In this document: positions 9,100 to 31,748 of the stretch, piece by piece
Position numbering within the stretch: the first letter of the stretch is position 1
How the letters are laid out: each line of letters opens with the position of its first letter
NCBI RefSeq assembly: GCF_009617975.1
Contig: NZ_CP040089.1
Location: forward strand, 330,001 to 362,000
Direction: 5' to 3'
DNA: 32,000 bases
DNA from: Candidatus Nanohalobium constans
GTDB taxonomy: Archaea > Nanohalarchaeota > Nanosalinia > Nanosalinales > Nanosalinaceae
Program-made: the position numbers and the translations under genes
Notes under the pieces: generated by a model
What the model was told of the DNA's origin: nothing
The model's input: only the letters and a program-made list of their open reading frames with translations
The model's database searches: none

Positions 9100-9591
9100 A
9101 TGAAGATTGGAGTAATCTCAGATACACACGACAACTTGAGTTTGACTAGGAAAGCAGTGGAATTCTTCGAAGCTGAGAAAGTTGAGGCAGTTATTCACTG
9201 TGGAGACATGATTGCACCTTTCACTGCAGAACTCTTCGACGCAGACTTTGATTTCTATGCAGTCAGAGGAAATAATGATGGAGAGTGGAGTCTGAAAGAG
9301 ACAGTTGAACAGTTTGGAGAGTTCTACAATAATATCGCAGACTTAGAGTTTTCTGGTAAGAAGATAGCTGTTTATCACGGTACTGAAGAAGAAATTGTAG
9401 AAGGGTTAGTTGAGAAGGATTACGATTATGTTTTCCGAGGTCACACTCATCGTAAAAAAGTGGAGAGTCATGGAGACACTACTGAGTTAAATCCGGGCGG
9501 CATCAAGCTGCTGGGACAGGAGGAAGAGTTCAATTTTGCGGTTGTTGATTTAGAAGAAGATGAAATAGGGTTTCATGAGATAATTGATTAG
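9100..9591 (+). CDS. MJ0936/YfcE-family metallophosphoesterase
   Basis: Motifs ISDTHDN, HCGD, RGNNDG, GHTH in canonical order. 163 aa. Confidence 0.85.
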   Translation: MKIGVISDTHDNLSLTRKAVEFFEAEKVEAVIHCGDMIAPFTAELFDADFDFYAVRGNNDGEWSLKETVEQFGEFYNNIADLEFSGKKIAVYHGTEEEIVEGLVEKDYDYVFRGHTHRKKVESHGDTTELNPGGIKLLGQEEEFNFAVVDLEEDEIGFHEIID

Positions 9592-10253
9592 GATTTCTTT
9601 TTGCTAGAAACATGTCTTCCTCTCTGGCTGACTGTGTAGAGGTATTGGATTTCTTGGGGTGTTAGTACATGGTTGTAGATTCGGACCTCTGATACTGAGC
9701 CTTTAAACAGGTCACTGCTGTTTAAACCTCCGAGTTCAGTGTTGTTAGTCGATGAGTAAAGCTTAGATATTGAGTTGTCCGTTCCTTCGAGTTTACCGTT
9801 TTTGAAAACCCGCATCTCTGATCCAGTCCAAGACAGAGTATAGTGGTTCCAAGTGCTTTTAGGTGCTGAGATGGCAACGGCAGCATTACTGGATCCATCA
9901 GATGTATAGAAGTCAAGATCTCCGCCTGCCCATCTAATAGTGTATGTAAAAGAATTGTTGCTTGTTTTAGAATCGTCTCCCTGTCCTATAACATTGCTGA
10001 AATCGGTTATATCGCTGCCTGGTCGAGCCCAAAAGGAAACAGTAAAAGAACTGTTATCCTGGTTAAATCCTGTTGAGACATAATCATTGCTCCCATCAAA
10101 ACTGTATGCGTTTTGTCCTGTGGGTCCTATCGTTGCTCCAACCACTGTGCTATCTCCACCGTTGTTGACTGAACCATGTTTTTCGTTCCCGCTGTGGTCG
10201 TATGCTGTACTTCCTGATTCTTCGTTTAACGGCCAGTATCCGATTAAAACCAT
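9588..10253 (-). CDS. LamG (concanavalin A-like jelly-roll) protein, one domain, no signal peptide
   Basis: YWPLNEESGSTAYDHSGNEKHG...AYSFDGSNDYVSTG...FTVSFWARP...FKGSVSEVRIYNHVLTPQEIQYLY. TAATG junction with the upstream gene. Confidence 0.8.
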   Translation of the reverse strand: MVLIGYWPLNEESGSTAYDHSGNEKHGSVNNGGDSTVVGATIGPTGQNAYSFDGSNDYVSTGFNQDNSSFTVSFWARPGSDITDFSNVIGQGDDSKTSNNSFTYTIRWAGGDLDFYTSDGSSNAAVAISAPKSTWNHYTLSWTGSEMRVFKNGKLEGTDNSISKLYSSTNNTELGGLNSSDLFKGSVSEVRIYNHVLTPQEIQYLYTVSQRGRHVSSKKKS

Positions 10254-11599
10254 TATTGGTCACCTTTAGCGTTTACAGTCATTTTTCTCATGTCTCGTCC
10301 TCTGGTTCCCCATTGGTAGAGTTGGAATACTTCGTGAGGTTTTAGTGCTCGTTTGTAGATTCTGAGGTCGTCAATGTCGCCTGTGAAGTAGTTTCCGGAT
10401 GAGGTAGTGGTGTCAAATGTTCCGATGTTTAAGGGTTCTGAGGTTGATAATTTTCCTACAGCGGATATGTCTGCGGTGCCAGATAATGCGCCGTCAATGA
10501 ATAACAGGGTTTGGTTGCTTGATTTATCTACTACGAATGTGAAATGATGCCACGATGAATCGGCTATTTTTTTGTTTGAGGAAAGATCCACCTTATTTGA
10601 GCCATCATCCACTCTACAGTTCAGTGTATTATCGGAGTTAGCTCTCACAGAATATGTCTGATCGGCAAATCCCAGGAAATACTCAAACTCGCCTGACTGA
10701 GTGTATCTGAACCATCCAGACAAGGTAAAATCGGAATCTGATGGATAAAGCGATGAATCATTAGATACCTGCACATACTCATCAGATCCGTTAAACTGCA
10801 TAGCTTTCCCTCTAATCGAATTTGAGGTATACCCTGAGCTTGTGCCGCTTCCTCCATCATTACTTCCCCAAGAATCATTTACTGTGTCGTCAAATGTCCA
10901 TCTTGAGACTGCACCTGAATCGGAACTGTCATGTAAGCTTTGGTCTGTGTAGTCGCCGCTCCCCCATTCGTACAGTTTTTGTACTTCTTGAGGTGTTAGG
11001 GTTCGGTTGTAGAATCTTACGTCGCATATTTCTCCTGAGGCAGGGAAGCTTGCTGGTCGGTTTCCTATTCTGAATCTCCCGTTAAGTGAGAAATCTGAGT
11101 GGGATGAAATATCGCTTTGATCCACAAGTTCTCCATCCATATACAGATTAATCCTGTTCTCAGTCAGAGAGAAACAGAAGTGATGCCATTCATCAAAATA
11201 GTTTCCAGAGTCCTTAACCTCGGCAAAATTACTGTTGCCGTCATCGTAGTGAACTTGTGCTGCACCGGTATCAGATGTTCTAACAAACAAATAGGGTGTA
11301 TCGCCACTATCGGTGCTAGACAAAAACAAAATGTATCGATAATCGCTTGAGTCCATCTTAGCCCAGACAGAGAATGTCGAATTTTTGATGCTGTATTTTG
11401 AAGGCAGATTTATTCGAACATGCTGATCATTGGAATTATCGAAGCTATAAGCAGTTAGTCCTCCTTTACCTGCTACTCCTTGTGTAGGATATGTGGAGGT
11501 TGTGGATCCATCGCCAAGTGTTCCATGGTTGCCGTTTCCTGAAAGGTCGTTTGCTCGTCCATTGTTTTCATGTAGTGGCCACCATCCTGTAAGATTCAT
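10253..11599 (-). CDS. LamG protein, two tandem domains, no signal peptide
   Basis: Domain 1: WWPLHENNGRANDLSGNGNHG...AYSFDNSNDQHV...CDVRFYNRTLTPQEVQKLYEWG. Domain 2: RWTFDDTVNDSWGSNDG...AMQFNGSDEYVQV...IDDLRIYKRALKPHEVFQLYQWG. ATGA overlap with the upstream gene. Confidence 0.8.
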   Translation of the reverse strand: MNLTGWWPLHENNGRANDLSGNGNHGTLGDGSTTSTYPTQGVAGKGGLTAYSFDNSNDQHVRINLPSKYSIKNSTFSVWAKMDSSDYRYILFLSSTDSGDTPYLFVRTSDTGAAQVHYDDGNSNFAEVKDSGNYFDEWHHFCFSLTENRINLYMDGELVDQSDISSHSDFSLNGRFRIGNRPASFPASGEICDVRFYNRTLTPQEVQKLYEWGSGDYTDQSLHDSSDSGAVSRWTFDDTVNDSWGSNDGGSGTSSGYTSNSIRGKAMQFNGSDEYVQVSNDSSLYPSDSDFTLSGWFRYTQSGEFEYFLGFADQTYSVRANSDNTLNCRVDDGSNKVDLSSNKKIADSSWHHFTFVVDKSSNQTLLFIDGALSGTADISAVGKLSTSEPLNIGTFDTTTSSGNYFTGDIDDLRIYKRALKPHEVFQLYQWGTRGRDMRKMTVNAKGDQ

Positions 11600-13038
11600 T
11601 GCAGTGTATCACCTCTGCTGATTCTGTAAGCGCCTTTGTTGTACAGTTTTTCGATTTGGATTGGGTTGAGGACTTGGTTGTAGATTCGGACATCGTCAAC
11701 GTACCCTTTGTAGTGTGCGTTTCCGGTGTTGGATCCTATTGTTGAGGCTGCGGACAGGTCAGATACAGTGTTCTGTGTTTGAGACTGCTGATTCTCAAGA
11801 ATGCCATCTACATATATGGATGTAGTGCTGCCATCACTTGTCGAAACTACGTGATGCCAGTTACCGTCATTGACAGTTGTCTGAGATGAGATAATATCTG
11901 CAGAGCTGCCGGTATACGTTACACTGAATTTTCCGTTCCCATCTCTATTGACTCTGTGAACCCAGACTCCCTCTATCGATAGAGGGACAACATTTGTGCC
12001 TGTAGTCTCTGTTTTAATCCATTTGGAGATAGTTACGCTGCCGTCGCCGCTATCAAAGGCATTCTGCGGTAGTTCTACTTGGTCGTCACTTCCATCAAAC
12101 TCCTTTGCCTGATCATAGACCCCGTCAACAAATCCGGTGCTTGTACTGTCGGTGCCATCATTTTCTCCCCATGAATCATTTACTGAACCGTTTAATTTGT
12201 ATCTGCTGATTCCGCCCTGATTCTGACTAGGAACTTCTTGCCCAGTCCTTTTTATTCCACTTTGTACACCATTTCCGGAGTTGTACAATGCTTGTATTTC
12301 TGGTTCTGAAAGTGCTCGGTCGTAGATTCGTATATCGTCTATTTTTCCGTCATGGTAGGAACTTGGTCCGCTGCTTCCTTCTATAGCTCCTATCGCATCT
12401 ATTCTTCCTGATACTCCTTCGGTGTTGGAGGAGTTGGATTTTTTTACTTCTAGGGTATTGTTGATGTAGAGTTTTACATCTGGGTTGTCTCTTACTGCTA
12501 CTATGTGATACCAGGTTGATGCACTGGGAGATCTTCCGTTCAGCGTTGAGTTGTCTGATGATCCGAAATGAGTATATGTCAGTGAGTCTGTGCTGTTATC
12601 ATATCTTATGCTGATATTATTATTTGATAATGGGCATAGGAAGACTCTTTCTGAGGTCAGGTCACCGCAGTTTATCCATGCAGATATTGTATACTCGCCT
12701 CTCAGTGGAGGGATCTCGGTTTTTAGATTTACATAATCATCTGTTCCGTCGAAGCTTAGTGCGTTGTTCCCTGTATTGGAGTTGGCAGACCACATGTCAG
12801 AAGCAGAAGTGTTTGTTCCGTTGGTTCCTGGGTTAATCTGTCCATGATTTCCAGTGGCTCCGTCCAGCAAAACCTCTCCCTGCCCTTTCTCCATGGGGTA
12901 GTATGCTACTAATCCTCTGGTCAGGCTTCCGTGTTGATATCCTTGACTTAGTTTTCCGTTAGTGTCTATTCCGTCAGAGATTCCGGATGAGTCCTGTTCA
13001 TCTTTGAAGTCGTTGCTGTTCCATTTTAGTTTTACCAT
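11596..13038 (-). CDS. LamG protein, two tandem domains, no signal peptide
   Basis: Domain 1: AYYPMEKGQGEVLLDGATGNHG...ALSFDGTDDYVNL...IDDIRIYDRALSEPEIQALYNSG. Domain 2: RYKLNGSVNDSWGENDG...AKEFDGSDDQVEL...VDDVRIYNQVLNPIQIEKLYNKG. Confidence 0.8.
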   Translation of the reverse strand: MVKLKWNSNDFKDEQDSSGISDGIDTNGKLSQGYQHGSLTRGLVAYYPMEKGQGEVLLDGATGNHGQINPGTNGTNTSASDMWSANSNTGNNALSFDGTDDYVNLKTEIPPLRGEYTISAWINCGDLTSERVFLCPLSNNNISIRYDNSTDSLTYTHFGSSDNSTLNGRSPSASTWYHIVAVRDNPDVKLYINNTLEVKKSNSSNTEGVSGRIDAIGAIEGSSGPSSYHDGKIDDIRIYDRALSEPEIQALYNSGNGVQSGIKRTGQEVPSQNQGGISRYKLNGSVNDSWGENDGTDSTSTGFVDGVYDQAKEFDGSDDQVELPQNAFDSGDGSVTISKWIKTETTGTNVVPLSIEGVWVHRVNRDGNGKFSVTYTGSSADIISSQTTVNDGNWHHVVSTSDGSTTSIYVDGILENQQSQTQNTVSDLSAASTIGSNTGNAHYKGYVDDVRIYNQVLNPIQIEKLYNKGAYRISRGDTLQ

Positions 13039-13042
13039 TTTT

Positions 13043-13525
13043 CTACACTGAGAGTTCTATTGAGTTGATTTCTGCGGTTTTCTCCATGTTGGAGTTGGTT
13101 AGGGTTGTTTTGATCCAGTACTTGTTTCCTGTGCCGCCTTGTATGTTGCTTAGTGTGGTTGTGTTGGTTCCGTCGTTGATTGTTATTGTTTCTGTGTTGT
13201 CGGCTGTTCCGCTTCCGGTTGTGTCTTCGAATATTGTTATTTCTGCTGTCTGGCTGTTCAGTGTTGCGTCTACTGTTGCTGTAGGTCCGGTTGATGGTCC
13301 GGTTGTGGATATTGCCAGGATGTCGTTTGCTGTTTTGACTTTTACTGGTGTTGCATCTGAGTTTGAAGGGTCTACAAGGTTGAGTCCGCCGATCTCTGAA
13401 CCTACTTTGATTTTCAAGGACGGTGTTTCGGAGAAGTCGCTGAGTTGGTATACTGGCAGCTTTACTGGTGTTCCTGCTGATGTTTTCAAGCCGATTTCTC
13501 CGATTTTTCCCATTTTTTGGATCAC
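13043..13525 (-). CDS. hypothetical Thr/Ser-rich protein (160 aa), no signal peptide
   Basis: An ORF packed 4 nt upstream of the LamG gene and 7 nt downstream of the Tat-signal gene. The overlapping plus-strand ORFs (13065-13577, 13468-13899) look like shadow frames. No family recognised. Confidence 0.6.
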   Translation of the reverse strand: MIQKMGKIGEIGLKTSAGTPVKLPVYQLSDFSETPSLKIKVGSEIGGLNLVDPSNSDATPVKVKTANDILAISTTGPSTGPTATVDATLNSQTAEITIFEDTTGSGTADNTETITINDGTNTTTLSNIQGGTGNKYWIKTTLTNSNMEKTAEINSIELSV

Positions 13526-13532
13526 TTGTTAT

Positions 13533-13859
13533 TTATGCGCTGGAGTCGTACCAGATTTCTCCTTCTTCCGGATTTGAAGGGTCACCGTTCACTGTTGGCA
13601 GTTTCAATGTATCTGAGGATGACATGTCGGCGTTTGAGTTCATGACTACTTCTGTGTCAAACGTTGCTGGTCCACCGTCGGTTATATCGAACTCTGTGTT
13701 GCTGTCAGTTCCAAAGAACTTCAGGTCACTGCTTTTTATGTCGACTGCTGATGCAGGAAGCATTGAGAATGCTCCTACACCTGCTAATCCGAGCCCGGCT
13801 TTTTTCAGGAATTTTCTCCTGCTTATGTTTCCTTCAGCTTCTTCGTTTTCTTGTTTCAT
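13533..13859 (-). CDS. small secreted protein with a twin-arginine (Tat) signal peptide
   Basis: The N-terminus ...NISRRKFLKKAGLGLAGVGAFSMLPASAVD contains the consensus SRRxFLK, an h-region and an AxA-like site. The mature part is about 70 aa and ends LKLPTVNGDPSNPEEGEIWYDSSA. Confidence 0.75.
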   Translation of the reverse strand: MKQENEEAEGNISRRKFLKKAGLGLAGVGAFSMLPASAVDIKSSDLKFFGTDSNTEFDITDGGPATFDTEVVMNSNADMSSSDTLKLPTVNGDPSNPEEGEIWYDSSA

Positions 13860-13913
13860 AAATATCTTATACCTTTTTGTTGTGTTTTTCTTTGTTTAAT
13901 ATTCTTCCGTTTG

Positions 13914-14738
13914 TCAGCAGGTCTCGCCAAGACAGACAGGAGCATTTACTGGTTTAACCTCAGTTGTGTTTAATGTTCCGTCCATTGAATTGTTTTCTGT
14001 GTTCACATAGCCTTCTAAACTGCCTGTTGAGATGCTGCAGTTGTTGCCAAGACAGTTAAAGTCGATGCTATCTGTTTGAAGTGTTCCGGTCATGTTGTCT
14101 CCGGAACGGTTTACATACTTTTCAGTTCCACTTAGTTCAGAACCACTTGTCGAACTACATCCTTCTCCGATACAGATTGGTGTGCCGTCGCCTGATCGAA
14201 GAGATGACTGTATGTCCAGTGATTCCATCTCACCGCCTGATGTCAAGAGCTTCTCTATAACAACTTGGACTATCTTGATAGGTCCTTGAATCTGCCCAGA
14301 AGCTTCCAGATCTGTCAATCCTCCGGCGTCGTAAATTACACTTAAATCATAAGTGTTGCTCCCTTCAGAGCGTTCTACATTACTTAAGGTTATAGTGTCA
14401 GAGGCTCCGATAGGGACAGAAATTTGAGAGCTGTTTGAAGTCTTTAGAGTATTATTTGATGGATCAGAAATCTTTACTTCATTAACAGTTACATCCTCAG
14501 AAGCTGCAGCCCGTACACGCATCTGCAGATTTCCCTCTGAGGTAACACCGAAATCAGTTACCTCAATCTTTGAATCGGAAAGCCCAGAAACAGCCTCAAC
14601 GCCTCCTTGACTCTGGATAACTGAGAAAATCGCTCCGCCTACAACCGCAACTACAACAAGCATCCATCCATAAGTAGTCAAGTACTCAATCGCAGACTGT
14701 CCTTTACTAACTTCTCGACCTATAAAACCAGAAAACAT
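13914..14738 (-). CDS. archaeal type IV pilin-like protein (class III signal peptide) with a Cys-loop / GDxMxGxL C-terminal region
   Basis: The N-terminus ...REVSKG|QSAIEYLTTYGWMLVVVAVVGGAIF is a class III signal with Gln at +1. The C-terminus has PICIGEGC, KYVNRSGDNMTGTL, NCLGNNC, GYVNTENNSMDGTL, VCLGETC. Paralogue of 23458-24249. Confidence 0.75.
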   Translation of the reverse strand: MFSGFIGREVSKGQSAIEYLTTYGWMLVVVAVVGGAIFSVIQSQGGVEAVSGLSDSKIEVTDFGVTSEGNLQMRVRAAASEDVTVNEVKISDPSNNTLKTSNSSQISVPIGASDTITLSNVERSEGSNTYDLSVIYDAGGLTDLEASGQIQGPIKIVQVVIEKLLTSGGEMESLDIQSSLRSGDGTPICIGEGCSSTSGSELSGTEKYVNRSGDNMTGTLQTDSIDFNCLGNNCSISTGSLEGYVNTENNSMDGTLNTTEVKPVNAPVCLGETC

Positions 14739-19216: not shown

Positions 19217-19447
19217 ATGTCTAGGACTATTCGTGGTATTGATGATGAAACCTTCCGTGAGTTTAAGGCGAAGGCTCAGAAGGAAGGTAGAACTATTGGT
19301 GATGCGGTAACAGAGGCTATGTCTCAGTGGTTGAATGAGACGAAGGAAGATGTTTCTTTAGATGATATGGATGCATGGGACTGGGGAGAAGGAACTGAGA
19401 AACTAAGTGAGGAACACGAGGACGAACTATATGGCGAAACTGCTTGA
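19217..19447 (+). CDS. vapB: ribbon-helix-helix antitoxin (VapB-like)
   Basis: MSRTIRGIDDETFREFKAKAQKEGRTIGDAVTEAMSQWL is a beta-strand plus two-helix RHH pattern. An acidic tail follows. The gene overlaps the PIN gene by 17 nt. Confidence 0.7.
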   Translation: MSRTIRGIDDETFREFKAKAQKEGRTIGDAVTEAMSQWLNETKEDVSLDDMDAWDWGEGTEKLSEEHEDELYGETA

Positions 19448-19802
19448 TACAAGCTTCCTAATAGCCTATCACAATAAGAGAGACGAACATCATGATAGAG
19501 CTAGAGAGCTAAGGCCGGAAAAGATTGTGGTCAACGATTACATATACGCTGAAGTTTTAGATACCATTTACTCTTCCCAGGGAAAAAAGAAAGCAGTAAA
19601 TTACTCCAAGTTTCTAGAAAAATCAGCGAAAGTCATCCCAGTAACGCAACCAATAATGAAGAAAACGGTTCAAAATTTTCAGGAAAAAGATCTCAGCTTC
19701 ACAGACGCCTCAATAGCAGCCACTGCACAAAAACTAAATATGGATATAGTTTCCTTTGACAAAGACTTCGACCAATTCAAGGATGTAGAAAGGATTCACT
19801 GA
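19431..19802 (+). CDS. vapC: PIN-domain toxin (VapC-like)
   Basis: MAKLLDTSFLIA..., SFTDASIAA and VSFDKDF supply the conserved acidic residues of PIN domains. The start at 19431 fits better than the track's 19407. Confidence 0.8.
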   Translation: MAKLLDTSFLIAYHNKRDEHHDRARELRPEKIVVNDYIYAEVLDTIYSSQGKKKAVNYSKFLEKSAKVIPVTQPIMKKTVQNFQEKDLSFTDASIAATAQKLNMDIVSFDKDFDQFKDVERIH

Positions 19803-23417: not shown

Positions 23418-23457
23418 CTGAGTTAAATAAACGAGTGAATCTAATTCTAGGTTGTTG

Positions 23458-24249
23458 ATGAGTAGTAGGCTTGGACAGTCGGGTGTTGAGTACTTAGCTA
23501 CTTATGGCTGGATGGCTGTAGCAGTCACAGTTGCAGGGGCGGCACTTTATCCGAGTTTGAATACTGGTTGTAATGTTCAGCTTGACGGCGATATCAGAAC
23601 CGGAGGGTTGGCAATTGAACAAGTTGGAGCTGATAAGAACGGCACATTGAAGGTTATTTTCGACAGTGATACTAGGGAGAAACTTCAGGTGGAGTCTATA
23701 AGGCTTGAAGGGAGTGAGGACAGCTTGACTGTTGTACAGCCTCGGGAAATCTCTCCTGGCGGGGAAATTGCGTATAAAATAGGAGATGTCGAGAGAACAT
23801 CGGGCTGTGATACTTTTGATGCAGAGATAACCTTTGATAAAGGACCTCTTCAGAGCCAGAAGAAACAAATTGAGATATCTGCACCTTATGAACTGGTTAA
23901 AAGATTTCTTTCTCTTATCCGTACAAGAGGCGATAGTATTGAGCACCTTGAAGTAGATGCTTCAGTAAAACCAACGAATGAAACGATATGTGTAGGTTTA
24001 GGGTGTGGTATAACTGAAGGAGGCAACGCAACCGAGCCTGAAAAATATCTTAATTACAGTGGGGACAGCATGAGGGGTACTCTGAGAACAAACCGTTTTG
24101 ATTCGGTCTGCTACGGCGTGAAATGTGAGGAAAAAGGTGGAGACATTGAGGGATATGTTAACTCTAACGAAAGCTTCATGGCAGGCACACTTCGGTTGAC
24201 CGAACTGATGCCCAAAAATGATGATGAAAAGAAGATCCTGCTAAAGTAG
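23458..24249 (+). CDS. archaeal type IV pilin-like protein (class III signal peptide) with a Cys-loop / GDxMxGxL C-terminal region
   Basis: MSSRLG|QSGVEYLATYGWMAVAVTVAGAALY. The C-terminus has ICVGLGC, KYLNYSGDSMRGTL, VCYGVKC, GYVNSNESFMAGTL, collinear with 13914-14738. The ATG at 23458 is preferred to the TTG at 23452. TTAAATAAA lies at 23424-23432. Confidence 0.7.
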   Translation: MSSRLGQSGVEYLATYGWMAVAVTVAGAALYPSLNTGCNVQLDGDIRTGGLAIEQVGADKNGTLKVIFDSDTREKLQVESIRLEGSEDSLTVVQPREISPGGEIAYKIGDVERTSGCDTFDAEITFDKGPLQSQKKQIEISAPYELVKRFLSLIRTRGDSIEHLEVDASVKPTNETICVGLGCGITEGGNATEPEKYLNYSGDSMRGTLRTNRFDSVCYGVKCEEKGGDIEGYVNSNESFMAGTLRLTELMPKNDDEKKILLK

Positions 24250-24321
24250 CTACCGACACTTTCCTTCTCAAAAAGTATAAAATGTGTACAAAAACAAATT
24301 ACTCACAAGTGTATACTTAAG

Positions 24322-26016
24322 ATGCGTAAACTACTGATTTCAGCACTCATTTTAGCAACAGTAACATCGGCTTCAGCTGAGATAGACTTCAGATCAGACC
24401 AGCCGATAGACTTCTACAACCACATTGATTTGAACGACAACGAGATAAGACAGTTTTTTAACCAATCCTGCGGAGAAGACCAAGCAGTAAAAGACGTATA
24501 TAATAACGGATCATTCGAATGTGCGCCAGCAGGAGGATTAGACACTGCAGTAGAAGTTAACAATACTTTGATTAAGAATATTGACGCCAACGGCTACCAG
24601 ATAACTAATCTAGCCGATCCTGCATCCGTAACAGGAGACTCAGCTGCCAGGTGGAAAGACGTAGTCAGTATCGAAGGAGACACATTAAAAGGAAACCTCA
24701 ACCTGAACGGATACAACATTTCAGATGTAGATACACTTAAATTTCAGTCAGGATTCAGTATAAACGGCTCTCTGAATACTTCAGGAGGAAATGTAAACCT
24801 TGATAACGGTAGTATAAGCGATGTCTACGCAATTGACGGCGGAGGCGACGAAATCGACGTACTAGATCCAGTAGACCTGAACGGCAACCAACTGAGAAAC
24901 TCAGAAGGAAGACTTGAAATAGACGGTGCAGTATACCTGCCATCAGGGAACCTAGACATGGCAGGCAACAACCTCATAAACCCGGGAAACGTAGACGGAG
25001 TAGACCTAGACAATCCTGCAGAATCCCTGACGATAAAAAACAACAGATACCAAATAATAGCAAGCTCAATAGGTAACAACAAGCTAAATAACTCTCAAAG
25101 AATAACTGTAGATGGCTTAACAAGCACAGCAAATATCAACGCCACAGGAAACATATTGAAAGAAGTAAACAGCGTAGAAGGCTCAGGAAACCTTACACTC
25201 AGGTCAGAAGCATCAAACGGAGTGGTATTAGAGAAAGAAGATGGAACCCAAATACTGACGGCAGGAACAGCAAATGAAGAAGTGGCAATTCCCAACGGCG
25301 ATCTCGACATCGAAAACAACGGTTTAACGATAAGAGGAGGGGATGGAACAGATTACACACTCGGTCAGTTTGGCAACGGAATTGAAATATCCCGACAAGG
25401 TTCTGGAAACTCCGAACTAAATATAGAGCCAGGAGTCACAGAACTAGGATCCTCAAAGATTGAAATTGTAAGGGGAAACCTCGATCTTCAGGGCAACTCG
25501 ATTGTTGATTCCACCTCAAGCAATTCAATACCAATAGGAGATGGAACAGATGACTCAGTAACAATAAATGCCGGGGGCACAGGGCAGTACACAGTAAACA
25601 CAGGGGATAACTCAGGAAGCACAAAAAAGAGGCTTCAGATAACAGCAGACTCCAGCAAATCAGATATAGATATCCAGAATGCAAACCTAGATCTAAACAG
25701 CAATAAAATCAAAAACTACTATGGGTCAGCCTGTCCATCAGGAGAAACAGTAGTAAACATCAACAATGACGGCACATTTGACTGTGTCAGCATCGCAAAC
25801 GACGTATCGGATGTATACGTCAACAGGTCAGGAGACTCCCTGAAAGGAAATCTAGACATGCGCGGCAACGAACTACAAGATGTAGGGAAAGCAGGAATCA
25901 ACACAGCTAATCCACAAGAAGACCTAGATGTCGACGGAACAGCATCAGTACAAAACGCAGGAACAGAAATGAAAGTAGACTCAAACGGAAACGTAGTGGT
26001 GAGCCTAGGACAATGA
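24322..26016 (+). CDS. secreted fibre/beta-helix-like repeat protein (564 aa)
   Basis: Sec-type signal MRKLLISALILATVTSASA. Many GNL(D/N)(L/M)xGNxIxN repeats. Two Cys-bracketed modules and YVNRSGDSLKGNLDMRGNELQDVG. Confidence 0.75.
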   Translation: MRKLLISALILATVTSASAEIDFRSDQPIDFYNHIDLNDNEIRQFFNQSCGEDQAVKDVYNNGSFECAPAGGLDTAVEVNNTLIKNIDANGYQITNLADPASVTGDSAARWKDVVSIEGDTLKGNLNLNGYNISDVDTLKFQSGFSINGSLNTSGGNVNLDNGSISDVYAIDGGGDEIDVLDPVDLNGNQLRNSEGRLEIDGAVYLPSGNLDMAGNNLINPGNVDGVDLDNPAESLTIKNNRYQIIASSIGNNKLNNSQRITVDGLTSTANINATGNILKEVNSVEGSGNLTLRSEASNGVVLEKEDGTQILTAGTANEEVAIPNGDLDIENNGLTIRGGDGTDYTLGQFGNGIEISRQGSGNSELNIEPGVTELGSSKIEIVRGNLDLQGNSIVDSTSSNSIPIGDGTDDSVTINAGGTGQYTVNTGDNSGSTKKRLQITADSSKSDIDIQNANLDLNSNKIKNYYGSACPSGETVVNINNDGTFDCVSIANDVSDVYVNRSGDSLKGNLDMRGNELQDVGKAGINTANPQEDLDVDGTASVQNAGTEMKVDSNGNVVVSLGQ

Positions 26017-29000
26017 AAAACAAGAAAACAATTCTAACCTTAGCTTTAATCGCACTAACAGCAACAGTAACTGCCAGCGATTACATAATAGAAGACAGCA
26101 ACGGCGACAACCTCTTCGTAGTCAACGAAACAGGAGAAAAACAAATCCAGAACGGCAACCTATACCTCAACGGAAACAAGATAACTGATCAAGAAGGCAC
26201 ACTCACCTTAGACGGGGGGAACGTAGAAATACCTAACGGAAACCTAGATATCTCAAACAACGTCAAAGCTAACAGCTTCAATCTGAAGTCATCAAATTAT
26301 GCTATACGATATGATAGTGGAACCGACTCAATACAGTTCAGAGATACTCAAAACGGAGATAACGAACTATGGATAAGAAGAAACGGAGATGTCCAAATTC
26401 CCAACGGCAACCTAAACATGAACGAAAACCGGATAAATAACGTTGGAAGACTGGACCTAGGCTGGGCTAACCTAACAGACTATCCAAACGGCTGCGGTCC
26501 CGAAGAAGCAGTAAGAGTAATCGGCGACACACTAGACTGCGTCTCACTAGATCCAAGCGGATCAGTAGGCGGAGGCGGAGAAAAAGGAGAAATCGCCTTC
26601 TACATAGACGGAGAAAACATCACAGGCAGCAACAACCTATACTGGAACAACTCACAAACAAGACTAGGACTAGCAACAAGTAATCCCTCAGCAACCCTAG
26701 ATGTAAACGGAGACGCCCAAGTAAACGGTCAATTAAACCTAAAATCCAACGAAATAACCGGAATAACAAACCTAGAAGGAACAAACATCGTAAACAACAA
26801 CCAGATATCCTCAGGAGCAATATCAAAAAACAAGCTCTCAACCAATTCAGTGGGTATAAACGAACTTGACTCAACCACAGCAGGAGACGGACTATCTGGA
26901 GGAAGCGGATCAGCCCTATCAGTAAACACCGGAACAGGAATCACAACCAACTCCGACAAAGTACAAATAGACACAACCCTAGTACCACGTAAAAACACTG
27001 ACGAAACAATAACAGCAAACCAATGGACATACCAAAACGATGTACAGATAAGAGGAAACCTCGACGTCTGGGGAAATGTACAGAACACAGACGTATCCAA
27101 CCTAAACATCAACGGATCACTCCTACCACCATCAGGATACACCGACACATTCAACGTAGGAAGCTCCAGCCGAAGATGGAAAACAGGATACTTCCAAGAC
27201 ATAACCCTAGGAAACAACGCAATAGACAACTCAGAAATCACAAACACAGACATAACAATCAACGCAAACTCAGGTCTATCAGGAGGAGGAACAACCAACC
27301 TAGGAGGAAGCACAGGACTAAGCCACGCAGACACATCAAATATAGGAAACATCGACAACTCCGGAGGAACCATCATCCAAGACCTCAACTTTGACGGCTA
27401 CGGACACGTCACAGGACAAAACAGCTACAACCTAGACAACCGATACTACACAGAAACAGAATCCGACAGTAACTTTGTGGATGAGAGCGGAGATACAATG
27501 ACTGGACCTCTGAACATATCTGATAATGAAATTGAAGATGCTAGAGGTATAAGCTTCAGTAACAATGGTGATTCTGGCTATATTAGAGAATATAGTGGAG
27601 GAGCTTTAGCTATAAATAGTCAGGGTAATGCTCTTCGCCTACAAGATGATAATTCTCAATTGGTAAGTATAGAAAGTAGTCTAAATATGAATTCTAATCT
27701 AATCAATAATTTCTTCGGCAGTAACTGTGCCTCTGATGAAGTAGTTGAAAGTGTTAACTCGGATGGTACCTACAACTGTAAATCAATCACTGGAACAGCC
27801 GATGACACATACGTAAATGAAGGTGGAGACACCATGACGGGAGCCCTTGATATGAGCGGCAATAATGTACAGAATGTAGGAACGATAAACGCCTCAACAA
27901 TCCAAGAAAACGGAAACGACATCGGCGGTCTATTCGTTGATGAATCAGGAGACTCAATGAGCGGAAGCCTCAACATGCAAGGACATCATGTAGACAATCT
28001 GAACTATCTTGACTTGAATTCTGAAGGACAAATTCAGACAGATGGAACAGACGCAATCAGATTCGATGGCAGTCAGAACATTGAGATTCCAAACGGAAAC
28101 CTAAATATCCGTAACGGAGGCATGATTAGTTTCACTAACGATGATTATATTGGACATGAGGGGAACGATATTAGGATGGAAACAGGTAGGAATATGAGGC
28201 TGGTTATAGACGGTGAAGGTGGTGGCGAGAGTTACCATGATTTAGAGGTGAGAAATTCTAATGGAGATAATTTGCTGGATGTGAGCCCGAATGGAAATAT
28301 TCAGATTCCTAATGGCTATCTGGACATGAACTCTAATGATATCAGGAACCTGGAGACTCCTGATTCTGGGACTGATGCTGCTACGAAGGATTATGTTGAT
28401 GCTCAGACTGGAGATGCTGAATCCGGGGCTACGCAGACTTTAAGCCAGGTGCTGTCTGAAGGTAATGATGCTGGTAGTCAGGCTATAACGAGTATTGGTT
28501 CTGGTAATATTGATATTGATGGTAGTGGTTCTGGTAATATCCAGTTGAATAATGAGGAGGTTAGAGGTGGTAGTATTACACAGTCGAACAACTTGATTGC
28601 TGGTTCTTACAGTACTGGTGAGTCCAGTGTTGATGGCGGTGATGTCTGGGTTGAGAACGATGTAGAGGTCGGTGGAGATATTGTTGGTTCTGGAGCGGAT
28701 GTTGCCGAGAAGATCAACAATGAATCCCAGCTAGAACCTGGTACGGTGGTAACTATCTCAGGTAATAACAGTGTTGACAAGACTCAAGGAAAACATGATA
28801 GAATGGTTGCAGGAGTAGTTTCAACCGATCCAGCAATGGTGATGGCTAAGGAAAGAGACGGGGTACCGATCGCTATGACTGGAACAGTACCGGTCAAAGT
28901 CACGATGGAGAACGGAGAAATTAAACCAGGAGACATGTTAACAACATCCTCCGCTGCCGGTAAGGCTATGAAGTGTCAAGACCTGACAAAATGCACAGGC

Positions 29001-29072
29001 TCAATCATAGGAAAAGCATTAGAACCAGCAGAAAAAACCTCTAAAATCAATATGCTTATCTCGATGAGTTAA
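26013..29072 (+). CDS. secreted giant fibre protein (1019 aa) with a tail-fibre-like tip
   Basis: ATGA overlap with the upstream gene. Signal MKNKKTILTLALIALTATVTASD. Three GDxMxGxL motifs. IRNLETPDSGTDAATKDYVD. C-terminal block GVVSTDPAMVMAKERDGVPIAMTGTVPVKVTMENGEIKPGDMLTTSSAAGKAMK. Confidence 0.75.
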   Translation: MKNKKTILTLALIALTATVTASDYIIEDSNGDNLFVVNETGEKQIQNGNLYLNGNKITDQEGTLTLDGGNVEIPNGNLDISNNVKANSFNLKSSNYAIRYDSGTDSIQFRDTQNGDNELWIRRNGDVQIPNGNLNMNENRINNVGRLDLGWANLTDYPNGCGPEEAVRVIGDTLDCVSLDPSGSVGGGGEKGEIAFYIDGENITGSNNLYWNNSQTRLGLATSNPSATLDVNGDAQVNGQLNLKSNEITGITNLEGTNIVNNNQISSGAISKNKLSTNSVGINELDSTTAGDGLSGGSGSALSVNTGTGITTNSDKVQIDTTLVPRKNTDETITANQWTYQNDVQIRGNLDVWGNVQNTDVSNLNINGSLLPPSGYTDTFNVGSSSRRWKTGYFQDITLGNNAIDNSEITNTDITINANSGLSGGGTTNLGGSTGLSHADTSNIGNIDNSGGTIIQDLNFDGYGHVTGQNSYNLDNRYYTETESDSNFVDESGDTMTGPLNISDNEIEDARGISFSNNGDSGYIREYSGGALAINSQGNALRLQDDNSQLVSIESSLNMNSNLINNFFGSNCASDEVVESVNSDGTYNCKSITGTADDTYVNEGGDTMTGALDMSGNNVQNVGTINASTIQENGNDIGGLFVDESGDSMSGSLNMQGHHVDNLNYLDLNSEGQIQTDGTDAIRFDGSQNIEIPNGNLNIRNGGMISFTNDDYIGHEGNDIRMETGRNMRLVIDGEGGGESYHDLEVRNSNGDNLLDVSPNGNIQIPNGYLDMNSNDIRNLETPDSGTDAATKDYVDAQTGDAESGATQTLSQVLSEGNDAGSQAITSIGSGNIDIDGSGSGNIQLNNEEVRGGSITQSNNLIAGSYSTGESSVDGGDVWVENDVEVGGDIVGSGADVAEKINNESQLEPGTVVTISGNNSVDKTQGKHDRMVAGVVSTDPAMVMAKERDGVPIAMTGTVPVKVTMENGEIKPGDMLTTSSAAGKAMKCQDLTKCTGSIIGKALEPAEKTSKINMLISMS

Positions 29073-29075
29073 AAA

Positions 29076-30272
29076 ATGAAATACGGGGTCTTAGAGGCAG
29101 CAACCGCAGCAGCAATAATCGCCACATCAGTCTCACTGCTGTACACGCCGCCAGAACCGAGCTGGGAGACAGAAGTAGTAGCCAACGATACTTATGGGAA
29201 GTTTGTGGAAGTAGATTCTTATGGAAGCAATGTAGGAATTGCATATGTAGACTCGATTGACACAGGGTTGAGGCTGGCAGAGAAAAGCTACTCGACCTCA
29301 ATCACCGATTTCTCAGCTCAGAGAAAGGGGAACTGGGATACACAGGTAATAGATAATAGATCAGAGACAGGGATGTATCCATCACTGGAGTCAAAGAGCG
29401 GTCAACCGTCGATTTCATACCAAGATGGAGACCTAGGAAATGAAAAACTGTACTACGCAAATAGGCAGAACGGTGAATGGAACAGGACAGAAGTCGATAA
29501 TGTTGTAGGAGGTGGAACCTCCGTAGGAATGTACTCCTCACTCAACTTCCACCAAAGCAAACCTGTAATATTTTACCACTCACCTTCTCAAGGGCTGAAA
29601 ATGGCTGAGAAAAAACAGGAATGGAGCAAAGAAATACTTGAGGACGGACAGGGATGGTATACAGAGACATCGAAATGCGGGAACACGATAAAAGTAGCCT
29701 ATACAGGCAGAAACTCTGAACAGTTAAAGATAGGAGAATACGACGGAGGTTGGAGTTCAGAAAACACCTCAACCAAGATAAAATCAGACCTCGACATCGA
29801 CACAGATCAACGATGCGATGAACAACTAGCATACCTAGACACCGAAACAGAACAGATAACCTACAAAGACCAAGATTCAAGGACATTCGGTGATGCATTC
29901 TTCACAAGACTAGCTCTTACATCAAAAGGAAATACTACACATCTAGTATACCACGATGAAGGAACAGGTCTAAAATATGCAAAGAAAAAAGATGGAGAAT
30001 GGACGACCAAAACAATAAAACAAGGCTCAGAAACAGGAGAGTACAACGACATAGAAATCGACCACATAGGAAACATCCACACGGCTTACACAAGCCAAAA
30101 AAAAGTATACCACACAGTATACAACAAAGGAACCACACAAAAGATACAGTCAAAAACTGATGAAGTGAAGATTGGACTAGGATTGATATCAGCACTACTA
30201 CTCATATTCACAGCAATTAGACAGGAAGTAATAGCTAAAATAATCCAGAAAATAGGTGAGATCCAGAGATGA
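29076..30272 (+). CDS. membrane protein with about seven propeller-like repeats, hydrophobic helices at both ends
   Basis: Starts 4 nt after the fibre gene. N-terminal AATAAAIIATSVSLLY and C-terminal IGLGLISALLLIFTAI. Seven repeats of about 45-50 aa, of the type TGMYPSLESKSGQPSISYQDGDLGNEKLYYANRQNGEWNRTEVD. Confidence 0.7.
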   Translation: MKYGVLEAATAAAIIATSVSLLYTPPEPSWETEVVANDTYGKFVEVDSYGSNVGIAYVDSIDTGLRLAEKSYSTSITDFSAQRKGNWDTQVIDNRSETGMYPSLESKSGQPSISYQDGDLGNEKLYYANRQNGEWNRTEVDNVVGGGTSVGMYSSLNFHQSKPVIFYHSPSQGLKMAEKKQEWSKEILEDGQGWYTETSKCGNTIKVAYTGRNSEQLKIGEYDGGWSSENTSTKIKSDLDIDTDQRCDEQLAYLDTETEQITYKDQDSRTFGDAFFTRLALTSKGNTTHLVYHDEGTGLKYAKKKDGEWTTKTIKQGSETGEYNDIEIDHIGNIHTAYTSQKKVYHTVYNKGTTQKIQSKTDEVKIGLGLISALLLIFTAIRQEVIAKIIQKIGEIQR

Positions 30273-30498: not shown

Positions 30499-31065
30499 GT
30501 GGTAGATAGAAAGCTGAAGAGATGGGTTGAGCAGCAGTTGGATAAAGGGGAATCACGTGAAGTAATACAGAAAGCTTTAGAGAATAAGGGCTATGATCCT
30601 TCGATAGTAGATGAAGTTGAAGAAGAGGAGGTTAGTTCAAGTATCTCCATCAATTCTGAGGATAAAATCAGAAAAATATCTTTAGGTGTAGAGAAGGGTA
30701 TTGAAGGAGCATCTGAAATCCGTGTTAAACAAGTGATAATCCTTTCGACCATATTAACAGCTTTATTTCTAGGATTATACTTTCAGCCATTTGCCACAGA
30801 CAAAAAAACATCAGAAGAACCTGCAACAGTAACCTTGGGAAAAGTCTCTGCCAATCCGGCAACAGCTACAATCAACCGTACTGATGCTGTTAAATTCAGG
30901 AACAATGCGTCACATTCGTTCAAGGTAAGTTTTGACAGGAATATCTCTTCTTTCAGCATTCAACCCGGTAGTTCTGTGGTCAGGAATTTTAACAGAACCA
31001 CTTATTATGATGCCGACCCATTGGATGATGGACGTACAATTAAGGGAAGTATCTATACTCCTTGA
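30499..31065 (+). CDS. bitopic membrane protein: small N-terminal helical domain, TM helix, cupredoxin-like C-terminal domain
   Basis: The GTG start is supported by alignment with the paralogue (VDRKLKRWVEQQLDKGESREVIQKALENKGYDPSIVDEV against EDSNIRKWIEKELRNGENPRELKEALLEEGYKPSIVDEV). TM helix VIILSTILTALFLGLYF. TTTTTTATCC lies about 25-33 nt upstream. Confidence 0.6.
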   Translation: MVDRKLKRWVEQQLDKGESREVIQKALENKGYDPSIVDEVEEEEVSSSISINSEDKIRKISLGVEKGIEGASEIRVKQVIILSTILTALFLGLYFQPFATDKKTSEEPATVTLGKVSANPATATINRTDAVKFRNNASHSFKVSFDRNISSFSIQPGSSVVRNFNRTTYYDADPLDDGRTIKGSIYTP

Positions 31066-31109
31066 ACACAAGGAACTATTTTTTATTCGAACTTTGACAC
31101 AAAAGAATT

Positions 31110-31748
31110 ATGGAGGATTCAAACATCCGGAAATGGATCGAAAAAGAATTGAGAAACGGAGAGAATCCTCGTGAACTCAAGGAAGCACTTCTGGAAGAAG
31201 GCTACAAACCATCAATAGTAGACGAAGTAAAACAAGAAACAAACCATGAAAAAACGACAAACAATACAGAAGAAATTAAACAAAAAATACAGAAAAGCGA
31301 AACAATAACCGAAAAACTCGAAAAAGAGATAAAGAAAGAATGGAAACCAAGGCTAGCTATAATCATAGTCATAGCAACAGTAGCAACAGGAACAATTCTA
31401 GCAACACCAATAACAAACACAATAAACAACACAGATAAACCTATCCAGGAAAAAACCGGGCAGACCGACCAAACAGAAAAACAAAACAAGGCAGGAAACA
31501 CCACCACAATCAAACTCTCTAATGGTGTAGCCAAGCCATCAAGACCATCAATAACGCCAGAAGAAAACATAAAATTCCAAAACAAAGAAAACTACAAAAT
31601 GAAGATAGTATTCGAATCAGAAAAAGAAAACCTGCAGATACCCGCCCAAGACTCCAAAACAACAAACCTTAACTCACTGACATACTACACTGCAAAACCC
31701 GCAGAAACCACTGCAGAACAAATATCAGGATCCATAATAGTCCAGTAA
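31110..31748 (+). CDS. paralogue of 30499-31065 (N-terminal helical domain, TM, cupredoxin-like domain)
   Basis: Same architecture. TM helix LAIIIVIATVATGTILA. C-terminal ...IKFQNKENYKMKIVF...LTYYTAKPAETTAEQISGSIIVQ. ATTTTTTATT lies about 25-33 nt upstream. Confidence 0.65.
   Translation: MEDSNIRKWIEKELRNGENPRELKEALLEEGYKPSIVDEVKQETNHEKTTNNTEEIKQKIQKSETITEKLEKEIKKEWKPRLAIIIVIATVATGTILATPITNTINNTDKPIQEKTGQTDQTEKQNKAGNTTTIKLSNGVAKPSRPSITPEENIKFQNKENYKMKIVFESEKENLQIPAQDSKTTNLNSLTYYTAKPAETTAEQISGSIIVQ

Follow-up and report, generated by a model that had tools for sequence, protein, structure and literature searches.

The window analysed here is a 32,000-nucleotide (nt) stretch of the genome of Candidatus Nanohalobium constans (NZ_CP040089.1, positions 330,001 to 362,000), a cultivated ectosymbiont of Halomicrobium (PMC7443923) that grows in stable co-culture with it, and the subject of this study is a tightly packed cluster of six minus-strand genes at window positions 9588-14738. 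In the order of transcription the cluster encodes a pilin-like head protein of 274 amino acids (aa; 13914-14738), a 108-aa protein with a twin-arginine translocation (Tat) signal (13533-13859), here called Tat-mini, an orphan protein that we call p156 (13043-13525 if read as 160 aa from a GTG), and three proteins with LamG domains: LamG480 (11596-13038, 480 aa, two domains), LamG448 (10253-11599, 448 aa, two domains) and LamG221 (9588-10253, 221 aa, one domain). The genes around the cluster are housekeeping genes for FtsZ, GatC, a metallophosphoesterase and IleRS.

An earlier reading of the letters and open reading frames (ORFs), hereafter the sequence-only reading, had listed six ORFs here, and all are present at these coordinates. 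Its account of the junctions is also borne out: 54 nt separate the stop of the pilin-like gene from the ATG of Tat-mini, 7 nt lie between the Tat-mini stop and the GTG of the 160-aa ORF, 4 nt lie between the p156 stop and the LamG480 ATG, LamG480 and LamG448 share an ATGA overlap (11596-11599), and LamG448 and LamG221 meet in a TAATG junction (10251-10255). No T-run had been seen between the genes, and the sole sense-strand run of at least five T indeed lies within LamG448 (about 11326), outside any gap. A sigma-70-type promoter and terminator scan, the model of which is not meaningful for an archaeon, gave no terminator-like site in the intergenic gaps and fewer matches than in shuffled sequence. 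For the 160-aa orphan the ORF stood but the start did not: p156 most likely starts at the ATG at 13513, because the deposited N. constans protein, 100% identical to p156, and all orthologues start there, which gives a protein of 156 aa and widens the gap to 19 nt.

Export signals and domains of the six proteins

Only two of the six products carry export signals, as had been read from the sequence. The signal of Tat-mini occupies residues 1-38 (13746-13859; SRRKFLKKAGLGLAGVGAFSMLPASA↓V, the arrow marking cleavage) and leaves a mature part of about 70 aa (13536-13745). It scores 22.3 bits against the NCBIfam model TIGR01409 (TAT_signal_seq; cut-off 16.7), which upholds the consensus twin-arginine signal proposed for this protein, and it combines an S/T-R-R-x-F-L-K motif, a hydrophobic h-region with a hydropathy maximum of 1.59 and an AxA site (SRRKFLKKAGLG, cleavage ASA↓V). 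The deposited N. constans protein, 100% identical to Tat-mini, is annotated as a Tat-signal protein. Among orthologues the signal is nearly invariant and the mature part divergent, and the twin-arginine (RR) motif itself is invariant across five lineages. The last 15 residues (13536-13580, minus strand) form a half-hairpin motif, PSNPEEGEIWYDSSA, in which PSNPxxGxIWYD corresponds to the first half of a hairpin repeat, aPxxPxxGDLWYDT...KVWNGsxW, that stands in tandem in the giant fibre proteins P0014 (with a Tail Collar domain) and P0085 (DUF7360/DUF2793). An AlphaFold2 model of mature Tat-mini was of low confidence (predicted local distance difference test score, pLDDT, 70; predicted template modelling score, pTM, 0.29), with three short strands and otherwise coil; weak as it is, the model at least fits a piece unable to fold compactly alone.

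The second signal, on the head protein, is of the class III type, that is, a [KR]-G↓Q/A cleavage motif followed by a hydrophobic N-terminal helix of about 20 residues. Its cleavage region reads SKG↓QSAIEYLTTYGWMLVVVAVVGGAIF (also SKG↓QSAIEYLTTYGWMLVVVAVVGGAIFSVI; KG↓QSAIEYL), and the hydrophobic stretch that follows reaches a Kyte-Doolittle maximum of 2.85 at residue 27. Motif and hydrophobic stretch thus agree with the class III signal claimed earlier for the first product, with no curated pilin or class III signal model of Pfam or NCBIfam, and no PDB entry, matching the protein. The signal is kept in the related loci L001 and L003, where the head protein has 80% and 61% identity, and in a paralogue at 23452. 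The C-terminal part carries tail-fibre-like GDNMTGTL and NSMDGTL motifs and three CxGxxC pairs, and its fibre segment resembles that of a protein with a general secretory (Sec) signal located before a Tat-mini gene in locus L014 (E 1e-5 in a five-sequence comparison). At L014 a small Sec-signal fibre protein precedes each of two Tat genes. No prepilin peptidase or assembly ATPase gene lies in the window, to which the search for them was confined.

The paralogue of the head gene (23452-24249, plus strand, 265 aa, GQSGVEYLATYGWM; E 2e-44 to the head protein) heads a second surface-protein cluster in the window (23452-30272, plus strand), in which the next genes encode two Sec-signal proteins (564 and 1019 aa) and a protein of 398 aa; Pfam matches none of them. 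The 1019-aa protein has fibre segments in common with many members of the Tat-signal family described below, and its C-terminal end matches a signal-less 1112-aa protein adjoining tatAC in L009.

LamG/ConA-like domains are typically extracellular binding modules. The five jelly-roll domains that had been recognised on the three LamG proteins all correspond to Pfam PF13385 (Laminin_G_3; LamG480 E 9e-49, LamG448 E 5e-51, LamG221 E 1e-22), with whole-protein scores of 166, 173 and 81 bits against a gathering cut-off of 27.6, and each domain ends in the expected signature, of the type RIY(N/D)xxLxxxE(I/V)xxLY. LamG480 begins with a conserved, non-hydrophobic extension of about 45 aa (12904-13038; MVKLKWNSNDF...LSQGY..LTRGLVAYYP) and ends in a conserved tail; the N-terminus of LamG448, MNLTGWWPLHENNG, is the first strand of its domain, and its conserved basic C-tail is YQWGTRGRDMRK..V; LamG221 starts with MVLIGYWPLNEESG and has the conserved basic C-tail YLYTVSQRGRHVSSKKKS. 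The lack of a hydrophobic N-terminus noted for these proteins was evident in hydropathy maxima of 0.02-0.31 (LamG448 0.13, LamG221 0.31), and the maximum of 0.80 for p156 likewise gave no signal, against 1.6-2.9 in the true signals of the window; none of the four proteins has a transmembrane segment or lipobox. The sequence-only reading had also asked whether longer N-termini might hide signals, and no LamG gene can gain one upstream, because the ORFs are already maximal and no upstream starts exist.

The composition of these four proteins, as far as sequence can tell, is of the exported type for a salt-in organism and unlike that of their cytoplasmic neighbours. Aspartate and glutamate (D+E) make up 10-13% of the LamG proteins and p156, and serine, threonine and asparagine (S+T+N) 29-35%, compared with 17-30% and 9-19% in the cytoplasmic proteins of the window and 12-16% and 19-31% in its signal-bearing proteins. 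In the LamG proteins the density of N-glycosylation sequons is 1.6-1.9 per 100 residues, with LamG480 at 12.3% D+E, 29.6% S+T+N and 1.9 sequons, and the best PDB sequence matches of LamG480 are extracellular LamG proteins.

The orphan p156 is made of two halves. The N-terminal half (about residues 1-72, 13298-13513) is a segment with the pattern VKLPVY...LNLVDPS...PVKVKT, which we call the PVY module, and the C-terminal half (about residues 78-156, 13046-13282) is a beta-sandwich. Orthologues are 35-76% identical and Tat-mini is always the preceding gene; in the Candidatus Nanosalina protein P0009 the C-terminal half is duplicated. AlphaFold2, run on eight sequences, gave an all-beta model of low confidence (pLDDT 59.6), and a Foldseek comparison of this model with the PDB, which the sequence-only reading had proposed for the orphan, returned no match with E under 0.01; the weak ones were to jelly rolls of the CBM36/CBM6 kind, with a template modelling (TM) score of about 0.4. 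The PVY module recurs at the C-terminal end of a signal-less 1402-aa protein at L014, downstream of another Tat-mini (33.8 bits, E 1e-9, 810 ORFs), and weakly in a beta-propeller at L012, and because it recurs in such putative cargo p156 may be an adaptor.

A conserved core and its wider Tat-signal family

Tat-mini, p156 and a LamG480-type gene are kept in that order in five lineages (the window, L001, L003-L006, L002 from Ca. Nanosalina sp. VS9-1, and L011), with p156 identity as low as 35%. The co-occurrence of Tat-mini with LamG genes in relatives, a check set by the sequence-only reading, is therefore found in all five, and every LamG orthologue is signal-less, starting with the domain or with the conserved non-hydrophobic LamG480-type extension. 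The close relative L001 carries all six genes at the corresponding position; in L003-L006 the pilin-like gene, Tat-mini, p156 and three LamG genes are joined by a further two LamG genes on the upstream side; L002 has Tat-mini, the p156 homologue with the duplicated C-domain and four LamG genes, and no pilin-like gene; and L011 has Tat-mini, p158 and a LamG480-type gene. The LamG alignments fell into three orthogroups in which the cores vary and the tails at both termini are conserved, a pattern also seen in the LamG480 orthologues of L001, L003, L002 and L011. Identity between L001 and the window is 94% for GatC, 82% for the phosphoesterase, 80% for the pilin-like protein, 76% for p156 and 56% for Tat-mini, and falls to 46-48% for the LamG genes. 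Such fast divergence of the LamG genes (46-48% versus 82-94% for housekeeping genes), together with conserved termini, is as would be expected of exposed binding modules held by conserved contacts.

The description of the locus as a six-gene operon stood as regards tight packing and did not stand as regards the membership of the pilin-like gene, which L002 and L011 lack upstream of the module. A TATA-like, A/T-rich element lies about 40 nt upstream of the Tat-mini start, within 13860-13913, and is present in three lineages, the window, L001 and L003 (GAATATTAAAC, GAATATATACA and GGATATAAAATC), which suggests an internal promoter ahead of Tat-mini; because of this element the pilin-like gene may be a separate transcription unit. 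We concluded that the conserved core consists of Tat-mini, p156 and the LamG genes and that the term six-gene operon overstates the evidence. There is some support for counting the head gene in the same apparatus, because its C-terminal part resembles the fibre segment of the Sec-signal protein at L014.

In several relatives the core is linked to the genes of the translocase itself. At L003-L005, tatA and tatC lie 40 nt past the last LamG gene; in Nanosalina (L002) they are located between LamG genes; and in the metagenome-assembled genome (MAG) that holds L009 and L010, Tat-signal genes flank tatA-tatC on both sides, the downstream one belonging to the Tat-mini family. Because the surrounding genes differ in these three cases, the linkage has outlasted rearrangement. 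N. constans encodes its TatC, P0199, elsewhere on the same 973,463-bp genome, which is of note in a phylum where TatC is patchy (PMC9765267). With lengths of about 230 aa and identities of 45-67%, the TatC proteins of nanohaloarchaea group tightly, and the next best matches in the search are bacterial (Flavobacteriales and others, 28-38% identity), not haloarchaeal.

Tat-mini belongs to a larger family, for which a profile search returned at least 177 cluster representatives at E ≤ 1e-3; the RR motif is present in 133 of the best 150 of these 177, and all five of the cluster members with organism names are from Ca. Nanohaloarchaea MAGs. Family-wide, the signal and the mature N-terminus follow SRRxFLKKxGxGxxGxGAxxxxPASA(L/V)(D/N)(I/V)(K/R)S, then xLxFYG, beyond which the family diverges and some members have Tail Collar domains, fibre motifs or LamG domains; we refer to it as the Tat-stub family. 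A metagenome scan with the signal region returned mostly generic Tat signals, with at least two true family loci among the matches listed. Most of the representatives P0011-P0160 have an acidic, coiled-coil-like leader of 30-60 aa before the RR motif (median RR position 49). Tat signals do not usually have such a leader, which could help in oligomerisation or in binding a chaperone; Tat-mini of the window has merely 13 residues ahead of RR.

Two classes can be told apart by where the protein ends. About 22 members (class A, defined by ending at G-x-(I/M)-W-(Y/F/I)-(D/R)) stop 2-6 residues past the half-hairpin motif, and Tat-mini of the window fits this class; about 13 members (class B) run on into the second strand and then a domain at the C-terminus. 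Of class B, four proteins, P0110, P0119, P0134 and P0053 (374-402 aa), consist of Tat signal, stub, full hairpin and LamG, and their LamG domains are homologous to those of LamG480 and LamG448 (E 1e-9 to 5e-5 in a comparison with the 150 listed family representatives). Because four proteins fuse what the window encodes on separate genes, the stub and the LamG domains would, by the Rosetta-stone argument, belong together.

Class-A genes lead directly into signal-less genes for large beta-rich proteins in six non-orthologous contexts. At L012 the next gene encodes a 374-aa beta-propeller and its start overlaps the class-A stop; at L014 two such systems lead to glycine-rich proteins of 1402 and 320 aa; at L016 a glycine-rich protein follows, and at L015 a protein of at least 666 aa. 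One Tat-mini of L014 (2440-2652 of that locus) is only 70 aa long, and its mature part, about 35 aa, has GDLWFREDLA at the end. Beside each of the two L014 systems there is also a paralogue (2653-3384 and 9940-10671) of a 243-aa protein of cytoplasm-type composition, which may be a dedicated chaperone. A divergent variant is present in another MAG (L008, 8441-13821 and 14654-19476), where a 140-aa Tat-signal protein ending in GxGVINFKT is followed by a protein of 376 aa that combines a beta-domain of the p156 type with another beta-rich region, a putative jelly-roll-like domain, and where a further Tat-signal protein of 345 aa is encoded; all of these genes adjoin type IV pilus genes (pilins, a FlaI-like ATPase and a FlaJ-like protein).

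Proposed Tat-escorted export and competing explanations

Tat exports folded proteins and is heavily used by halophilic archaea, and the subunits of dimethyl sulphoxide (DMSO) reductase provide one case of Tat hitchhiking. Hitchhiking of signal-less partners is established as well for hydrogenases and formate dehydrogenases (PMC10924467), and at the present locus we likewise find one signal-bearing subunit with adjacent signal-less partners and a Tat translocase in the same genome. The explanation that we prefer, with our confidence divided evenly for and against it, is that the locus would encode a multi-subunit LamG adhesin of a nanohaloarchaeon, exported folded by Tat hitchhiking. With the twin-arginine signal confined to the 108-aa protein, Tat-mini would join the adaptor-like p156 and the three LamG proteins in the high-salt cytoplasm, directly or via p156, and the complex would leave via TatAC by the hitchhiker route. 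Outside, the fast-evolving LamG cores would bind carbohydrate or glycoprotein, presumably for contact with the haloarchaeal host, and cohesion between the subunits would come from the conserved LamG tails at both termini, from the p156 PVY module and from the half-hairpin that ends Tat-mini; attachment to the membrane or to a filament may come from the pilin-like head protein. The analysis itself establishes gene content, the signals and where they are missing, synteny, tatAC linkage, family structure and the fusions, and from these we infer complex formation, co-export, surface location, the order of the subunits and a role in host binding.

A function of Tat-mini as carrier or anchor of the LamG proteins had already been suggested by the sequence-only reading. 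Gene neighbourhood, tatAC linkage, the fusions and composition spoke for it, and a test for a split-hairpin contact did not; since the carrier function is read solely from gene neighbourhood, the idea can be called partly supported. The split-hairpin idea was prompted by the start of LamG480, MVKLKWNSNDF, which resembles the second strand of the fibre repeat, and holds that the N-terminus of LamG480 or p156 completes the Tat-mini hairpin. In three tests it found no support: Pfam recognised nothing in chimeric sequences of Tat-mini and its neighbours; repeat hidden Markov models (HMMs) built from 54 giant-fibre repeats or from the 13 class-B members did not place the true chimeras (Tat-mini with the N-terminus of LamG480 or of p156) above about 340 random N-termini (ranks 2 to 361); and an HMM of the second strand only found nothing in the neighbouring genes. 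An M(x)1-5W(N/D/S) start recurs in the first large cargo, including the unrelated beta-propeller of L012, a pattern recognised post hoc, and docking of this kind is speculation.

Apart from the outcome of these docking tests, several observations weigh against export by hitchhiking. The load on a single mature protein of 70 aa would be up to four proteins with a combined mass of about 140 kDa, and in the known hitchhiker complexes, which are cofactor enzymes, the partners number one or two. The structure models of p156 and Tat-mini are of low confidence, and the richness in S, T and N may be intrinsic to LamG domains, which weakens the argument from composition. One class-A member, at L009, is followed by an RNase J gene. 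tatAC is absent from the window, and since the tatA genes that adjoin the module elsewhere may have their own promoter, we claim linkage and not co-transcription.

An alternative that we regard as rather unlikely is that Tat-mini acts on its own as a small protein of the surface, for instance a fibre stub or an anchor, and that the LamG proteins and p156 exit by some other, unrecognised route such as vesicles, lysis or a DPANN-specific pathway, with the neighbourhood reflecting co-regulation or assembly outside rather than co-export. The failed split-hairpin test, the possible internal promoter and the possible separate tatA promoters are in keeping with it; the match to the fibre repeat is confined to Tat-mini, which could be a minor part of a fibre, and the pilin-like and Sec-signal proteins nearby indicate that several export routes serve these loci. 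However, an unrecognised export would be required for at least six signal-less protein families, each encoded directly after a Tat-signal mini-gene, and the recurring tatAC linkage and the Tat-stub-LamG fusions would be left unexplained. Distinctly improbable, in our view, is a divergent Tat-fimbria with donor-strand exchange, of the type known as tafi, in which Tat-mini, p156 or both would be pilins and the LamG proteins TafC-like tip adhesins. In Haloarcula hispanica and Natrinema sp. J7-2 these Tat-dependent filaments of halophilic archaea have TafA and TafE pilins, a tip protein, TafC, that ends in a LamG domain, the peptidase TafD and the anchor TafF (PMC11821415, PMC12337348). The NCBIfam TafC model does match all three LamG proteins (E 1e-20 to 6e-9), but the matches span the LamG part alone (positions 148-367 of 373), reach 35-74 bits against a cut-off of 410 (NF052521), and come from proteins that lack the Tat signal and pilin-like N-domain by which TafC is defined. 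p156 is all-beta and pilin-sized, and the mature N-terminus of the Tat-mini family (ALDIRSxxLxFYG) is conserved, as would be expected of a donor strand; yet neither protein matches a Taf model even at E ≤ 10, a complete pilin fold needs more than the roughly 70 aa of mature Tat-mini, p156 is signal-less, and a p156 profile found no PDB chain at E ≤ 0.1, neither of its two weak matches being labelled pilin. Nor does a gene for a signal peptidase I (TafD) or a C-terminally anchored TafF-like protein lie in or beside 9588-14738.

Two further explanations dispense with hitchhiking altogether. The cluster could be part of a virus or tailocin-like particle, either a remnant or a module, the fibre or receptor-binding proteins of which are assembled in the cytoplasm and hence have no signals; PHROGs families of virion structural and tail-fibre proteins are matched (E down to 1e-30), tail-fibre motifs occur in the head protein and across the family (Tail Collar, DUF2793/DUF7360 repeats, GDxMTGxL), and LamG proteins occur in viruses of haloarchaea and Nitrosopumilaceae. 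Every match to PHROGs or phages, however, runs through the generic LamG domain at 26-33% identity, and p156 has no relative in 2.9 million viral contigs (IMG/VR); on these two grounds we rejected a viral origin of the module, which appears a very remote prospect. No capsid, portal, terminase or integrase gene accompanies the cluster, which is flanked by genes for FtsZ, GatC, the phosphoesterase and IleRS; the module sits in different housekeeping contexts from lineage to lineage, linked to tatAC, and Tat and class III signals would be senseless for a particle assembled in the cytoplasm. It is equally hard to credit that the LamG proteins and p156 are simply cytoplasmic, unrelated to export, and fortuitously arranged, as their lack of signal, transmembrane segment and lipobox would allow. 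Against it stand their exported-type composition in a salt-in organism, the extracellular PDB matches of LamG480, the fast evolution of their cores, and the conserved synteny with signal-bearing genes and tatAC.

Relation to known systems and meaning for nanohaloarchaea

The sequence-only reading knew of no described system of this composition, which holds for the exact arrangement; it does not allow for tafi, a Tat-dependent system with a LamG tip that is related in concept. Both occur in halophilic archaea and have, or would have, a Tat-dependent surface structure with a LamG/ConA-like, presumably adhesive end and small beta-rich subunits encoded side by side. Every structural subunit of tafi has its own Tat signal, whereas here one 108-aa protein alone has it; TafC fuses LamG to a pilin-like domain, whereas here five LamG domains are spread over three signal-less proteins; and no homologue of TafA, TafE, TafD or TafF was detected for the window cluster. 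Relatives of tafi have been reported in Halobacteriales, Archaeoglobales, Thermococcales and Sulfolobales, with Nanohaloarchaeota not among them (PMC12337348). Judged by its sequences, the cluster resembles tafi in concept and not in sequence.

A mechanistic parallel may be found in the Tat hitchhikers, such as the E. coli hydrogenase-2 pair HybO-HybC, hydrogenase-1 and the formate dehydrogenases, in which one subunit has the RR signal and signal-less partners encoded next to it are exported through binding in the cytoplasm (PMC10924467). The known cases are redox enzymes in which folding is forced by cofactor insertion, with the signal on a large catalytic or electron-transfer subunit; here, in contrast, the cargo would be cofactor-less and lectin-like, with up to four cargo proteins, and the signal is on a 70-aa stub seemingly without another role. 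By this analogy the system would work like a hitchhiker complex and resembles tafi in concept, and by the tests applied it is a member of neither.

The fused family members P0110, P0119, P0134 and P0053 share with the cluster the signal and stub (SRRxFLKKxGxG...PASALxI(R/K)S) and homologous LamG domains; they are single polypeptides of 374-402 aa, unlike the window, where the stub ends after the first hairpin strand and LamG is encoded on separate genes, and by the NCBIfam model they are not TafC either. The likeness to phage tail-fibre repeat proteins (DUF2793/DUF7360, Tail Collar) lies in the PSNPxxGxIWYD half-repeat of Tat-mini and the GDxMTGxL motifs of the head protein, but there is only half a repeat, in a context that is cellular and signal-bearing, not viral. 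Strain-specific LamG/PKD surface proteins and SPEARE proteins of nanohaloarchaea have been proposed to act in host attachment (PMC7443923, PMC10266531), and thus concern the same organisms, the same domain type and the same proposed role; these papers call the proteins secreted or membrane-bound in general terms, and we found in them no reference to missing signals, Tat-mini, p156 or a link to tatAC. Literature searches on Tat hitchhiking of adhesins and on Tat in Nanohaloarchaeota gave no description of this arrangement.

Elsewhere in the window, a 731-aa ORF close to its edge (24-2219, plus strand) has VWA and CARDB domains and is likely to be another surface or adhesion protein. A PIN-domain protein (19407-19802, plus strand; E 5e-18) between housekeeping genes may be the toxin of a toxin-antitoxin pair. 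At 30499-31748 (plus strand), where G+C drops from about 0.43 to 0.37, two small paralogous proteins (188 and 212 aa) are encoded side by side; they resemble each other at the N-terminus (MVDRKLKRWVEQQLDKGES... and MEDSNIRKWIEKELRNGEN...), and the first has a relative in L009.

LamG proteins are the usual candidates for host recognition and attachment by DPANN archaea. We tentatively propose, with some inclination to doubt, that Nanohaloarchaeota have a dedicated family of tiny Tat escorts, down to 70 aa in length, whose sole task would be to carry cofactor-less, signal-less adhesin and fibre proteins through TatAC pre-folded; as part of the same tentative proposal, the cargo types seen would be LamG, beta-propeller and glycine-rich proteins, with the signal and the exchangeable, fast-evolving binding modules on separate genes. 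If true, this would be a general route of export and assembly for the host-contact apparatus of these DPANN symbionts and the first use of Tat hitchhiking for adhesins, extending it beyond redox enzymes to modular proteins of this kind. Many nanohaloarchaeal proteins predicted to be cytoplasmic would then be surface proteins, and for that reason secretome predictions from signal peptides would be badly incomplete for these organisms. The Tat pathway, patchy as it is in the phylum, would become a marker of a particular attachment strategy, and the separation of signal and cargo would let binding modules be swapped or diversify with the export part untouched.

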